Source of the DNA: Escherichia phage PP01
Direction: 5' to 3' (one strand)
DNA: 64,000 nt
Sequence record: NC_054930.1
This document shows positions 8,801-16,131 of the stretch, one piece after another (within the stretch, counting starts at the first letter, position 1; each line of letters starts with the position of its first letter). The translations under genes and the position numbers were made by a program. The notes under the pieces were generated by a model. The model did not search any database and was not told where the DNA came from. It saw only the letters and a list, made by a program, of their open reading frames with translations.

Positions 8801-9471
8801 CTATTTTATACGATAGCAATCAGGCATATCATCCGCATTTATCCAATTGCGAATAGTTTTAGGACTAACTTTAAAATGCTCCGCTGCGTAATCAGGATTA
8901 TCAAATTTAACGCCCTTTATACATATTGGAATAAATTTTTTAATACCACCAAGTTTTTCAGAAATAGCTTTACGGTGTGAAATCGATATAGGTTTATTTT
9001 TTCGTGGATGAACATGTGTTTTATAATATTCATTGCGCCCTTTAACTCGCTTCGCAATAGTTTCATCAGATTGCTTAACGCCTGTTTTTGCCTTTGATAT
9101 TTTTCGTTTAGCTTCCACAGTCATTCCTTCTTTTGTTCGTATTGATAACATATTACGATATGAAGGATCTTGCAAATGAACTATAACTGGATTTCCTCTG
9201 CCACCAATAGCAGCATTATAGGTATCAGTTCTCATAACGAATTCCTCATTGACTAGTAAAGCTTCCATTTTATACATCTCCTCAGATGAGGAGAAAGAAT
9301 AAAGAATTTCTTTTTAAAGTTATGAATACCATATTTTTTGATGGATTTTTTGATGTTTACGCCAGAACCCATATAACCATCGTTTTCGTCAAGAGTAGCA
9401 TGAGCTCCGATGTAAATTTTTCCATTGATGATATTAGTAATTTGATATATTAAATATTTCATTTTAAACAT
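8801..9471 (-). pseudogene. segD: GIY-YIG homing endonuclease segD, split by a -1 frameshift in an A5 tract (N-terminal ORF to 9253, C-terminal ORF 8801..9277)
   Basis: N-terminal part has [18 protein letters not shown]...YMGSG (GIY-YIG); restoring one A at about 9311-9316 fuses ...[30 protein letters not shown]... into a 223-aa protein, the remembered T4 SegD length. Confidence 0.75.
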
Positions 9472-11891: not shown

Positions 11892-12170
11892 TCAAAATGT
11901 AATTTCTAACCAATCACCATCACGCTGATCACTATTGACTTTAAAGCTGAATCCTTCTTTTCTCAGCCAATCACCAATTTCTTCAGTAATCAATTTATCA
12001 CGAGCAATACAATAATAATTAAAATGTGTTTTACCTTGTTCAGCTGCTTTATTAGCAAGTTCCGAAAAATCTTTAATAAAACATTCTAGCTTAAACTGTT
12101 TACTTTTGAATGCTTTTTCGCGTAATTGATTAGCAAAAGATTCATTTTCATAAAGATCATACTGTTCCAT
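11892..12170 (-). CDS. 24.2: Hypothetical protein (T4 24.2 position)
   Basis: 92 aa ORF; synteny. Confidence 0.7.
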   Translation of the reverse strand: MEQYDLYENESFANQLREKAFKSKQFKLECFIKDFSELANKAAEQGKTHFNYYCIARDKLITEEIGDWLRKEGFSFKVNSDQRDGDWLEITF

Positions 12171-12372
12171 TTTTCACCTTTTTATTGATATGTCTTTTTC
12201 TATAGACAACTTTTTCTCGAGTTTCAAATTTATTCTTAGCAGTCATAGCTCGAGCCCATAATACAGCCACTTCTTTTGCCTGTAAGTTCAATTCACGAGC
12301 AATTTCAATGAATGACTTTCCAGACTCATGGAGTGTAAACACCACAACCTCAGTTCTCATAATCAATCTCAT
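12157..12372 (-). CDS. 24.3: Hypothetical protein (T4 24.3 position)
   Basis: 71 aa ORF; synteny. Confidence 0.65.
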   Translation of the reverse strand: MRLIMRTEVVVFTLHESGKSFIEIARELNLQAKEVAVLWARAMTAKNKFETREKVVYRKRHINKKVKNGTV

Positions 12373-12442
12373 GTTATCGAGTTGATGCCATTATATACAC
12401 CGTTTTCTGATTGTGTTTTATGTGCTTTCAAAATGAAGAAAG

Positions 12443-12456
12443 GGGCCGAAGCCCCT
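12443..12456 (-). terminator. Hairpin GGGGC-UUCG-GCCCC (minus-strand reading) just after the hoc stop
   Basis: Inverted repeat seen. Confidence 0.5.
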
Positions 12457-12460
12457 GAGA

Positions 12461-13879
12461 TTATGGATAGGTATAGATGATACCAGTTTCTAAAGCAGTT
12501 TTATGAATGATGTATCCATTGCGCGATTCTTGAACATCAACTTCTGGATAGTCTTTCATCATCTTCTGAAGAGTGTAACGATGCAAGTAGTATTTACTAT
12601 CTGGATCTTCAGTTTTCCAATCTTTACCTTCTTCAGTCATTTTTTGGATTTCATCCATAACCCACCAACCGCACCAGATATAAGCTGAGCTACGATGTGG
12701 AAGAGGATGAACATAAGGTAATTCACCTTCTGGTTCCGGAGCAACTTTATCAGTCACTTGAACTTGACCTGTGGCTTTAACTGTTTTACTATCATAGTCA
12801 GTTGCTGTAACGACAGCAGTAACTTCAATAGTTTGACTTCCAATAGATGATGTATCAACGGTGTATACATTAGTTGACCCTTCTACAGGAGAAGAATCTT
12901 TCTTCCATGAATACGTAATTTGTGCTTCTTCCGGAGCATCCGTAACGTTAGCAGTAAATGTAGCCGAAGCATCTTGCTGAACATTAATAGAAGGAGGAGT
13001 CAATGTAACCTGTGGATTCATTGTCTTCTTATTAACTGTCAATGATACTTCATTGGAAGTAACTTCCTTTTCATTATAATTTTCTGCAGTTACTTGGGCT
13101 ACGCATTTAATTCTTTTTACTCCACTTGTAGTTGGAGTATAGTTAAATGTAGAGTTAGTTTCTCCACCAACTTGTGAATCATCTACATACCACTGATACG
13201 TGGCAGACGCTCCATCGGGTTGAGAAGCTAAGGCAGCAGTAAATTGAACCGGAGTTCCAATTACTCCAGCAGCAGGACTAGCAGGAGTTACTGCCAAGGT
13301 AGTTGTCTGCGTCTTTTTATTAACCGTCAATGATACTTCATTAGAAGTAACGCTCAATGCATCATAATCTGTCGCAGTTACTTGAGCTACACACTTGATT
13401 TTTTTAACTCCGCTTGTGGAAGGAGTGTAATTGAATGTAGCGTCAGTTGCTTCGTCTACAGGAGAACCGTCAACATACCATTGATACGTAGCAGATGCGC
13501 CCGATGGCTGTGAAGCTAAGGCAGCAGTAAATTCAACGGCTGTTCCGATTACTCCTTCTGGAGGACTATTAGGAGTTACAGCTAAGGTAGTTGTCTGTGT
13601 CTTATTTTGAACTGTGATAGTTGTACTAATTTCAGCTGTTTCAGCTTCAGCTTCTGGAACTGTATTTGTTGCAACCACTTTAATAGTCTTTTGACCAGCA
13701 GGTCCTTTTAATACATAATTAAAGGTTGCTTCAGCTCCATCCTGTGGAACATTATCTACGCTCCAAGCATAGGTAATAGTTCCACCTCCAGTTTCACCAC
13801 TGGGTGTAGCAGTAAACTGCTTGGTTTCATCAATAACCCCTGTTGGTGTTTTAGGAGTTATATCAACTGTAAAAGCCAT
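12461..13879 (-). CDS. hoc: Highly immunogenic outer capsid protein Hoc, with four Ig-like modules plus the capsid-binding C-terminus
   Basis: 472 aa; N- and C-termini as remembered for T4 Hoc (376 aa); contains an extra ~96-aa Ig-like repeat. Confidence 0.93.
   Translation of the reverse strand: MAFTVDITPKTPTGVIDETKQFTATPSGETGGGTITYAWSVDNVPQDGAEATFNYVLKGPAGQKTIKVVATNTVPEAEAETAEISTTITVQNKTQTTTLAVTPNSPPEGVIGTAVEFTAALASQPSGASATYQWYVDGSPVDEATDATFNYTPSTSGVKKIKCVAQVTATDYDALSVTSNEVSLTVNKKTQTTTLAVTPASPAAGVIGTPVQFTAALASQPDGASATYQWYVDDSQVGGETNSTFNYTPTTSGVKRIKCVAQVTAENYNEKEVTSNEVSLTVNKKTMNPQVTLTPPSINVQQDASATFTANVTDAPEEAQITYSWKKDSSPVEGSTNVYTVDTSSIGSQTIEVTAVVTATDYDSKTVKATGQVQVTDKVAPEPEGELPYVHPLPHRSSAYIWCGWWVMDEIQKMTEEGKDWKTEDPDSKYYLHRYTLQKMMKDYPEVDVQESRNGYIIHKTALETGIIYTYP
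13034..13606 (-). repeat. Tandem in-frame duplication (2 x ~288 bp) encoding two near-identical Ig-like modules within hoc
   Basis: Protein residues 92-186 and 187-282 align closely (NKTQTTTLAVTP...SNEVSLTV twice); the DNA similarity is also visible. Confidence 0.85.
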
Positions 13880-13888
13880 AAGTTATCC

Positions 13889-14569
13889 TTATTTTAATGT
13901 TACGAAAGAAGAATTGCGTGTTTCACGAATTAGAACTGATCCGTCACGATTAATGTAGTAAATTAAGCTAAACAAAGTTTGATGCGCAGATGCATGTTCA
14001 AAACTAGTTGGGTGAGATTTCCAATTCGGAGTTTCAGCAATCCACTGGTAAATCCACCAAGGAACAGTGCAGAATCCTGGATTTTTTCCAATCAACTGAA
14101 GATTCGGACTAAAGTTTTCCGGAAGAGTGAATACAGACGGCTTTTCAGATTCAATAATCTCAGCTACAGCCTGTTCGAATTTTTCTTCAACAAAAGGAGT
14201 ATCTTCAATCAAAACATCGGTATTTTCGGGAATTTTATCCGTTTCTACTACTTCAATTTTAATGTCAGATTTAACCGGAGAATCAATCAGAAGTGCTGCT
14301 TCTGGATTGACCTCTTCATCGTCATATTTTAACCCCTCTGCAGCATCAGCAGCATCGATTAAGTCTTTAATAGATAACCCATCAGTCTCTGGCATAGGTT
14401 CATTAGCGAGCTTCTGGAGGGCTTCTTCAATATCAATAACGATATTATCAAAAGATTTATTCTTTTTGACCTTTATACCAAACTGTTCAGCATATTCAGC
14501 TAATTTAGCCTTAGCTTCTTTATTATCATCAAGAGCCTTCAGCTCTGCAATATAATCTTTATCTATCAT
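13889..14569 (-). CDS. inh: Inh, inhibitor of the prohead protease
   Basis: 226 aa; synteny between hoc and uvsW. Confidence 0.85.
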   Translation of the reverse strand: MIDKDYIAELKALDDNKEAKAKLAEYAEQFGIKVKKNKSFDNIVIDIEEALQKLANEPMPETDGLSIKDLIDAADAAEGLKYDDEEVNPEAALLIDSPVKSDIKIEVVETDKIPENTDVLIEDTPFVEEKFEQAVAEIIESEKPSVFTLPENFSPNLQLIGKNPGFCTVPWWIYQWIAETPNWKSHPTSFEHASAHQTLFSLIYYINRDGSVLIRETRNSSFVTLK

Positions 14570-14582
14570 AATATTTCCTCAG

Positions 14583-14590
14583 TATAAATA
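14583..14590 (+). promoter_or_regulatory. Late promoter TATAAATA for uvsW
   Basis: Exact TATAAATA about 29 nt upstream of ATG 14620. Confidence 0.65.
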
Positions 14591-14619
14591 TAGATATATT
14601 TATTACATGGTATTTAGAC

Positions 14620-16131
14620 ATGACTGACATTAAAGTACATTTTTACGATTTTAGTCACGTGAGAATTGATTGTGAAGAAAGTACATTTCATGAACTCCGT
14701 GATTTCTTTAGCTTTGAAGCTGATGGGTATCGTTTTAATCCGAAATACAAATATGGTCACTGGGATGGACGAATCCGTCTTTTAGATTATAATCGCCTTC
14801 TTCCATTCGGTTTAGTTGGGCAAATTAAAAAGTTCTGTGATAACTTTGGCTATAAAGCCTGGATTGACCCGCAAATTAATGAAAAAGAAGAATTATCAAG
14901 AAAAGATTTTGATGAATGGATTTCTAAATTAGAAATCTATTCAGGAAATAAAAGAATTGAACCACACTGGTATCAAAAAGATGCAGTGTTCGAAGGATTA
15001 GTTAATCGTCGTAGAATTCTTAATCTTCCAACATCCGCAGGTAAATCTTTAATTCAAGCTTTGCTTGCACGTTATTATTTGGAAAATTATGAAGGTAAAA
15101 TTCTTATCATTGTTCCAACAACTGCTTTAACAACTCAGATGGCTGATGACTTTGTTGACTATCGTTTATTCAGTCATGCAATGATAAAGAAAATCGGTGG
15201 TGGAGCATCAAAAGATGATAAATATAAAAATGATGCACCAGTCGTTGTGGGTACATGGCAAACTGTAGTAAAACAACCAAAAGAATGGTTTTCCCAATTT
15301 GGTATGATGATGAATGATGAATGCCATCTTGCTACAGGAAAAAGTATTTCATCTATCATATCGGGTTTAAATAACTGCATGTTCAAATTCGGTTTGTCTG
15401 GTTCATTACGTGATGGAAAAGCCAATATCATGCAGTATGTTGGAATGTTTGGTGAAATATTTAAGCCAGTAACGACTTCTAAATTAATGGAAGATGGGCA
15501 AGTAACTGAGCTAAAAATTAATAGTATTTTTCTTCGCTATCCTGATGAGTTCACTACTAAATTAAAGGGAAAAACTTACCAAGAAGAAATAAAAATTATT
15601 ACTGGACTCAGTAAAAGAAATAAATGGATTGCTAAATTAGCTATTAAACTTGCACAAAAAGATGAAAACGCTTTTGTCATGTTTAAGCATGTATCACATG
15701 GTAAAGCTATTTTCGATTTAATTAAAAATGAATACGATAAAGTTTATTACGTATCAGGGGAAGTTGATACCGAAACACGCAACGTAATGAAAACCTTAGC
15801 TGAAAACGGTAAAGGAATAATTATAGTAGCTAGTTATGGTGTATTTTCTACTGGTATTTCAGTTAAAAATCTGCATCACGTTATTTTAGCGCACGGTGTT
15901 AAATCTAAAATTATTGTATTGCAAACAATAGGTCGCGTATTACGTAAGCATGGTTCTAAAACAATCGCAACGGTCTGGGACCTCATAGATGATTGTGGTG
16001 TTAAGCCAAAATCTGCTAATACGAAAAAGAAATATGTTCATTTGAACTATCTTTTAAAACACGGCATTGATCGTATTCAGCGCTACGCAGATGAAAAATT
16101 TAATTACGTAATGAAAACAGTTAATTTATAA
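14620..16131 (+). CDS. uvsW: UvsW SF2 DNA helicase (recombination and repair)
   Basis: 503 aa; Walker A PTSAGKS and DECH box; synteny. Confidence 0.95.
   Translation: MTDIKVHFYDFSHVRIDCEESTFHELRDFFSFEADGYRFNPKYKYGHWDGRIRLLDYNRLLPFGLVGQIKKFCDNFGYKAWIDPQINEKEELSRKDFDEWISKLEIYSGNKRIEPHWYQKDAVFEGLVNRRRILNLPTSAGKSLIQALLARYYLENYEGKILIIVPTTALTTQMADDFVDYRLFSHAMIKKIGGGASKDDKYKNDAPVVVGTWQTVVKQPKEWFSQFGMMMNDECHLATGKSISSIISGLNNCMFKFGLSGSLRDGKANIMQYVGMFGEIFKPVTTSKLMEDGQVTELKINSIFLRYPDEFTTKLKGKTYQEEIKIITGLSKRNKWIAKLAIKLAQKDENAFVMFKHVSHGKAIFDLIKNEYDKVYYVSGEVDTETRNVMKTLAENGKGIIIVASYGVFSTGISVKNLHHVILAHGVKSKIIVLQTIGRVLRKHGSKTIATVWDLIDDCGVKPKSANTKKKYVHLNYLLKHGIDRIQRYADEKFNYVMKTVNL

Follow-up and report, generated by a model that had tools for sequence, protein, structure and literature searches.

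The hoc gene of Escherichia phage PP01 is intact and, from its sequence and a structure prediction, encodes a Hoc protein with four Ig-like domains on a conserved capsid-binding domain. Its domain 2 very probably exists as two old tandem paralogues of 96 residues each, both maintained by purifying selection, with in-register recombination as the likely agent of their origin and reshuffling. We analyzed a stretch of 64,000 nucleotides of the phage genome (NC_054930.1), hereafter the window, in which the hoc open reading frame (ORF) occupies positions 12461–13879 on the minus strand and comprises 472 codons.

Domain 2 of Hoc is present as two divergent tandem copies

The hoc product matches T4 Hoc chains such as 5vf3_Z with an E-value of 1.2e-221 (phmmer). 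In a pairwise alignment, the two proteins are separated by one clean gap of 96 residues, outside which they are 92% identical. The original prediction had set a Hoc of 472 residues against one of 376 residues in T4, and both lengths are borne out by the ORF and by the T4 record NC_000866. It had also described two DNA repeats of about 288 bp. A repeat search indeed recovered a direct, tandem 288-nt repeat (13023–13310 and 13311–13598, 78% identical), and Tandem Repeats Finder delimited a repeat at 13023–13603 with a period of 288, 2.0 copies, 0% indels and a score of 719. The alignment gap and the 288-nt repeat thus establish both the extra length and the tandem duplication as real. In the protein, the tandem units correspond to residues 92–187 (module copy 1; 13319–13606, minus strand) and 188–283 (module copy 2; 13031–13318, minus strand), 96 residues each. 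The interval 13034–13606, to which the duplication was initially assigned, is exactly that of residues 92–282. The period is a multiple of three, the copies are free of indels and the units match domain boundaries, as is characteristic of an in-frame tandem domain duplication. Alignment with T4 hoc shows one domain-2 module in T4 and two in PP01.

The two copies had been taken as near-identical, which they are not. They share 74 of 96 amino acids (77%) and 224 of 288 nucleotides (78%). Identity reaches 86% at codon positions 1 and 2 and falls to 60% at position 3, with dN of 0.149, dS of 0.79 and a dN/dS ratio of 0.19. The similarity is nonetheless far above chance (z = 56 against shuffles). 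The longest exact in-register run between the copies is 22 nt, followed by runs of 17 and 14 nt; with 78% nucleotide identity, the long perfect homology of a recent, unstable repeat is missing. For comparison, dS between the orthologous flanks of PP01 and T4 is 0.21–0.43, below the 0.79 found between the module copies. The high dS, the low third-position identity and the low dN/dS ratio point to an old duplication under purifying selection, and the module pair can be read from these values as old paralogues, both of which have been kept.

Domain organization and predicted structure

The AlphaFold2 (AF2) model of the hoc product consists of four all-beta domains, mostly with pLDDT values of 85–95, followed by a poorly modelled alpha/beta C-terminal domain. 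The input alignment was shallow (45 homologues, mostly above 86% identity), which accounts for the low confidence of the C-terminal domain. The predicted domain boundaries (1–91, 92–187, 188–283 and 284–378) fall on the boundaries of the repeat units. Domain 1 (residues 1–91; 13607–13879, minus strand) is all-beta with block pLDDT values of 83–93. The corresponding values are 86–95 for module copy 1, 92–96 for module copy 2 and 80–93 for domain 3 (residues 284–378; 12746–13030, minus strand), which is orthologous to domain 3 of T4. Pfam recognizes a PKD domain at residues 197–267, within module copy 2 (41 bits, gathering cutoff 23.5), and I-set and Ig_3 matches at residues 289–374 of domain 3, under their cutoffs. 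Against the PDB, Foldseek ranked solved strings of four Ig domains highest, namely Dscam1 Ig1-4, Sidekick Ig1-4 and ICAM-5 D1-D4. Hence, Pfam, AF2 and Foldseek all indicate the N-terminal linear string of Ig-like domains typical of a T4-like Hoc. Together with the alignment, they uphold the proposal of an Ig-like module that is extra with respect to T4, in frame, in tandem and paralogous to its neighbor.

The similarity extends beyond the two module copies. Domain 1 is 41% identical to module copy 1 (z = 15), the modules are 40% identical to domain 3 (z = 14–15) and domains 1 and 3 are 27% identical, the whole set of comparisons among domain 1, modules and domain 3 spanning z = 8–15. At these levels, all four Ig-like units are evidently homologous to each other, and the whole string would result from serial duplication at different ages.

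The C-terminal domain (residues 379–472; 12464–12745, minus strand) is assigned to capsid binding from its homology to T4 Hoc, whose residues 281–376 it matches with a single substitution, E424 for D (dN 0.004). The role of this domain in capsid binding has been described (PMC10385173). Because the binding domains are nearly identical, PP01 Hoc would be expected to sit as one copy in the middle of every gp23 hexamer and to be dispensable for growth.

Genomic context of hoc

Over its first 25 kb, the window is 96–97% identical to Tequatrovirus genomes, for example those of vB_EcoM_SCS4, Yersinia phage PST and T6, and no record matches it exactly. The ORF order rnlB - 24.2 - 24.3 homologue - hoc - inh - uvsW is that annotated in T4, segE excepted, so that hoc lies at its T4-like position with inh on one side and the 24.3 homologue on the other. 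On the minus strand, inh leads directly into hoc. A Shine-Dalgarno-like AAGGA (13886–13890, minus strand) precedes the hoc ATG by 6 nt and overlaps the inh stop codon. Five nucleotides past the hoc stop codon, a G+C-rich hairpin followed by a T-run (12441–12456, minus strand) resembles an intrinsic terminator, and terminators are annotated at the equivalent position in MK327928, NC_055723 and KT184309. The late-promoter motif TATAAATA does not occur on the minus strand from hoc to position 14700, and a scan for sigma-70-type promoters gave background level only.

Three differences from T4 were seen nearby. The gap between inh and uvsW is about 50 nt (14570–14619), a place taken in T4 by the homing endonuclease gene segE; segE is therefore absent from PP01. 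Between two ORFs of 521 and 427 residues, placed like T4 genes 23 and 24, lies an ORF of 158 residues (8801–9277, minus strand). The T4 counterpart at this position is segD, a GIY-YIG endonuclease of 223 residues. The sole Pfam match of the 158-residue product is a weak HTH_17 (E = 0.0016, under cutoff), and the ORF may be a remnant of a mobile endonuclease, either truncated or different. Finally, the 24.3 homologue (12157–12372, minus strand) encodes 71 residues with a full-length DUF2774 match (107 bits), whereas 24.3 is given 56 residues (171 nt) in the T4 record. The difference may reflect start annotation or a real difference at the N-terminus.

Hoc length alleles among related phages

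A megablast search with PP01 hoc returned 677 phage records, from which a systematic sample of 60 was taken down the ranking. A single piece spanning about 1419 nt was found in 19 of these 60, and about 35 gave a span of about 1131 nt in two pieces, as expected if one module matches both copies of the query. By extrapolation from the 19 records, the two-copy form represents about 30% to a third of the matching records, that is, around 200. Its records come from hosts that include E. coli, Shigella, Yersinia, Salmonella and Serratia, on several continents, and the same architecture is present in metagenome contigs. Of the 120 best-ranked protein clusters, 80 have 376 residues, 29 have 472, one has 468 and nine have 567–570. 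Eight of these nine long clusters contain three copies of the PP01-type domain-2 module; the ninth (P0043, 567 residues) has one such module and, after it, two that are much more divergent. Three-copy hoc genes (1707–1713 nt; 568–570 residues) occur in at least 14 phage records.

Two-copy hoc is thus one of three length alleles (376, 472 and 568–570 residues, with 1, 2 and 3 copies) in Tequatrovirus and its neighbors, and the number of modules is polymorphic at the genus level in otherwise orthologous genes. In GenBank record MN850651 (phage moskry), a repeat_region is already annotated over the module repeat.

Two further observations concern phage T4_ev151 and the classic phages T6 and T2. 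Record LR597660 (Escherichia phage T4_ev151, hit H125) has a three-copy hoc of 1707 nt, compared with the single copy of T4; the name, which marks it as a T4 derivative, may be misleading, or the gene may derive from another phage through recombination. In T6 (L071, AP018814) and T2 (PV648363), the annotation splits hoc into two or three CDSs. In T6 the gene measures 1132 nt; it is off frame by one base and has many stops past the shift. Either sequencing errors or genuine inactivation in laboratory stocks would explain these split genes.

Three lineages of domain-2 modules

Modules were extracted as DNA from 12 two-copy genes, 18 one-copy genes and one three-copy gene; a metagenome scan had yielded eight close hoc loci, to which 18 phage records were added. 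They were painted at 18 nucleotide sites diagnostic of copy 1 or copy 2; painting was done on DNA because, at the protein level, just three columns are diagnostic for single-copy modules. Across the 12 two-copy genes, mean nucleotide identity is 87% between first copies (alpha type), 91% between second copies (beta type) and 77% between first and second copies. In all 12, which are independent, alpha precedes beta and the two copies of the same gene are 74–81% identical. Module copy 1 of PP01 is of alpha type at 18 of 18 diagnostic sites. A third type, gamma, is found at copy 3 in the three-copy gene, at copy 2 in pSs-1 and as the sole module in fFiEco06.

The 18 single-copy genes are distributed over all these types. 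Six are alpha throughout and one is gamma. Five are beta past the first diagnostic site or sites, four of them switching after the junction site and L069 one diagnostic site later. In two, alpha gives way to beta near nt 213–222, and four, T4 included, are alpha-beta-alpha mosaics. In T4, the painting gives alpha at nt 1–25, beta at 36–221 and alpha at 233–288, and the module as a whole has 90% nucleotide identity to PP01 copy 2 and 82% to copy 1.

In the module alignment, variation is clustered in a few groups of columns on an invariant framework. The hypervariable columns are 13, 16, 23, 25, 35, 47–56, 63–69 and 79–85. Such a pattern would fit variable binding surfaces.

Origin of the module copies and direction of change

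The mosaic patterns suggest that in-register unequal recombination would underlie both the origin of the hoc modules and their later changes. A linker motif, TV-(N/Q)-(K/N)-K-T (elsewhere given as TV-N/Q-K-K/T-T), is found at the domain 1/module, module/module and module/domain 3 boundaries. The original join may have occurred at this short motif, which would offer the microhomology for adding or removing exactly one domain. Later exchanges would then proceed through the conserved framework stretches within the modules, the exact runs of 22, 17 and 14 nt, and generate mosaics. The expected outcome is gain, loss or mosaic reshuffling of modules, with reading frame and domain boundaries kept.

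One Tequatrovirus Hoc of 282 residues (L039, 601–1446) has module 2 fused in register to domain 3 at a shared VTATDYD in the protein sequence, so that in-register exchange between Ig units does occur in nature. This Hoc keeps two Ig-like domains, and may be of the same kind as the published PNJ-9 variant.

The direction of change is harder to assign. Gain in PP01 and loss in T4 are equally compatible with the data because the single T4 module is a mosaic of both types, and the painting of single-copy modules as a whole fits two opposite histories. The first, to which we give a little less than an even chance, is that a multi-copy array (alpha-beta, perhaps alpha-beta-gamma) is ancestral and that T4 and the other single-copy genes derive from it by in-register deletion or gene conversion. 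Indeed, alpha and beta modules differ by 23% of nucleotides, which exceeds the mean allelic divergence of domain 1 (11%), domain 3 (8%) and the C-terminal domain (4%). Single-copy modules nest inside the alpha, beta or gamma types and never outside. Seven of the 18 single-copy genes show the single alpha-then-beta switch expected of a deletion, with varied breakpoints, and the T4 painting likewise combines segments of the two types. Module order is constant in the arrays, and the copy-number states are interspersed on each of the clusterings made from domain 1, domain 3 and the C-terminal domain; this interspersion fits recurrent change or recombination alike. On the other hand, the six genes that are all alpha and the five that are beta save for the junction codon or codons are equally what would be expected of free-standing alleles. 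The four alpha-beta-alpha genes, T4 among them, require two exchanges instead of one. The root lacks a resolving outgroup, and heavy recombination weakens any polarity based on trees.

The second history, plausible although we would not call it probable, starts from alpha, beta and also gamma as divergent alleles of a single-copy domain 2; an unequal crossover between two different alleles, at the linker, would have assembled the array on one occasion, and the array would then have spread. There are single-copy genes of near-pure alpha, of near-pure beta and of near-pure gamma type, the required linker microhomology is present, and hoc moves between phages, with Tequatrovirus-type hoc found in Mosigvirus records. 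However, the allelic divergence of the module would then have to be 2–6 times deeper than that of the adjoining segments. The constant alpha-before-beta order suits a single origin under either history and does not discriminate between them.

A broader reading, which we regard as rather unlikely, takes hoc as a cassette-like locus with three ancient lineages in fixed order, in which T4 would be a secondary deletion mosaic and the coexistence of forms with three, four and five Ig-like domains would be selected for length or valency. If it were true, selection would act on fibre length or valency, for example through adherence to different mucosal surfaces.

Very little remains of the idea of a recent, PP01-specific duplication, in which near-identical repeats would be unstable and copy number would vary within the stock. 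The repeats are direct and in tandem, in a phage with very active recombination, and the original expectation of variable copy number stands insofar as related phages carry 1, 2 or 3 copies. Yet a recent duplicate would be nearly identical, and the part of the claim that concerned a recent, near-identical repeat fails with 78% nucleotide identity, a dS of 0.79 and a maximum perfect in-register run of 22 nt. Moreover, all 12 independent two-copy genes examined, from varied hosts and continents, have this alpha-beta pair, with a within-gene identity of 74–81% throughout and never above. An assembly artefact, although mis-assembly can falsely expand tandem repeats, has a negligible probability, as units that diverge by 22% are unambiguous to short reads, the reading frame is intact and the identical architecture recurs in about 200 independent records of phage genomes as well as in contigs from metagenomes.

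Overall, the four-Ig Hoc built on two old domain-2 paralogues is real and was already deposited, in one record with the repeat annotated; it is neither recent, nor near-identical in its copies, nor specific to PP01, nor an artefact. That the number of Ig domains varies in Hoc is already published. In the literature that was searched, no explicit account of the domain-2 duplication was found. What is mildly new is the view, at population level, of three lineages of modules in a constant order, along with the possibility that T4 Hoc is the derived form.

Fibre length and possible consequences for adherence

Work on phage therapy, mucus adherence and Hoc display usually takes the 376-residue Hoc of T4 as its reference. 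In about a third of the sequenced relatives, the Hoc fibre is one domain longer than this reference, and in some it has two extra domains. As an allele of a decoration protein that is not essential, the four-Ig Hoc is common, and its practical relevance is modest. The T4 fibre is 180 Angstrom long (PMC10385173). By analogy, that of PP01 would be longer by about one Ig domain, or about a quarter, and the extra module would add one more variable surface. Relevance of the longer fibre to mucus adherence is a reasonable inference.

Published contacts with mucin can be placed on the PP01 protein. E29 and G33 of domain 1 are reported as the MUC2-binding pocket of PNJ-6 Hoc (PMC11150434), and an S-L-T motif of domain 2 is reported as a MUC2 contact of PNJ-9 Hoc (PMC11853027). 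From its translation, PP01 Hoc retains E29 and G33 in domain 1, and it has S-L-T twice, at residues 183–185 and 279–281; the additional domain thus brings a second copy of a motif that, in one phage, reportedly contacts mucin. Nevertheless, the extra domain 2 need not affect binding, because the published sites differ, being in domain 1 for PNJ-6, in domain 2 for PNJ-9 and, reportedly, in domain 3 for evolved T4. The natural alleles with three, four and five Ig-like domains and near-identical capsid-binding domains would provide a ready series for relating fibre length and valency to adherence.

Comparison with known Hoc proteins

T4 Hoc (NP_049793, 376 residues; PDB 5VF3 and related; model of Fokine et al. 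2023, PMC10385173) is encoded at the same gene position, between inh and 24.3. Domains 1 and 3 are about 90% identical in nucleotides between T4 and PP01, and the capsid-binding domains are one residue apart. T4 Hoc has a single domain-2 module, itself a mosaic with a beta core and alpha ends, whereas PP01 has two modules.

Closer counterparts are the Tequatrovirus Hoc proteins of 472 residues, found in Escherichia phage 132 (MZ417521), vB_EcoM_SP1, G2133, BF15, HP3, Yersinia phage fPS-90, Shigella phage pSs-1 and Serratia phage PhiZZ30, among others. They have the same four-Ig architecture and alpha-beta order as PP01 and are at most 97.2% identical to it in nucleotides over the whole gene. 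Only allelic substitutions separate them from PP01, concentrated where the module surface is variable, and none of the records is identical to the window. In the Hoc proteins of 568–570 residues, for example those of Escherichia phages UGKSEcP1/2, YUEEL01, EC101 and KMB26 and Shigella phages ESh16/26/34/36, the first two copies belong to the alpha and beta types as in PP01, and an extra third module of gamma type brings the number of Ig-like domains to five.

Outside this group, two Mosigvirus records, L064 (MN850651, moskry) and L073 (KT184309, ATK47), carry a Tequatrovirus-type hoc with about 87–90% nucleotide identity to that of PP01, two-copy in one and single-copy in the other. This suggests that hoc has been exchanged between genera. 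A metagenomic Hoc of 565 residues (L033, 601–2295) joins an RB69/JS98-like Ig string to a Tequatrovirus-type C-terminal domain that looks almost identical to that of PP01, and its gene appears to be chimeric.

More widely, Hoc-like proteins have 1 to 10 Ig domains, the Hoc of Muldoon having 10 (PMC10385173), and the T4-like phage PNJ-9 has a Hoc variant without one domain (PMC11853027). Among the RB69/JS98-like proteins (L006-L033) of related genera, L006, L007 and L031 have two copies of domain 3, unlike PP01, where it is domain 2 that is present twice; L033 has two copies each of domain 2 and domain 3, and L012 is without domain 2. In PNJ-9, in Muldoon and in these RB69/JS98-like proteins, as in PP01, the capsid-binding domain is conserved and the Ig string changes by whole domains.
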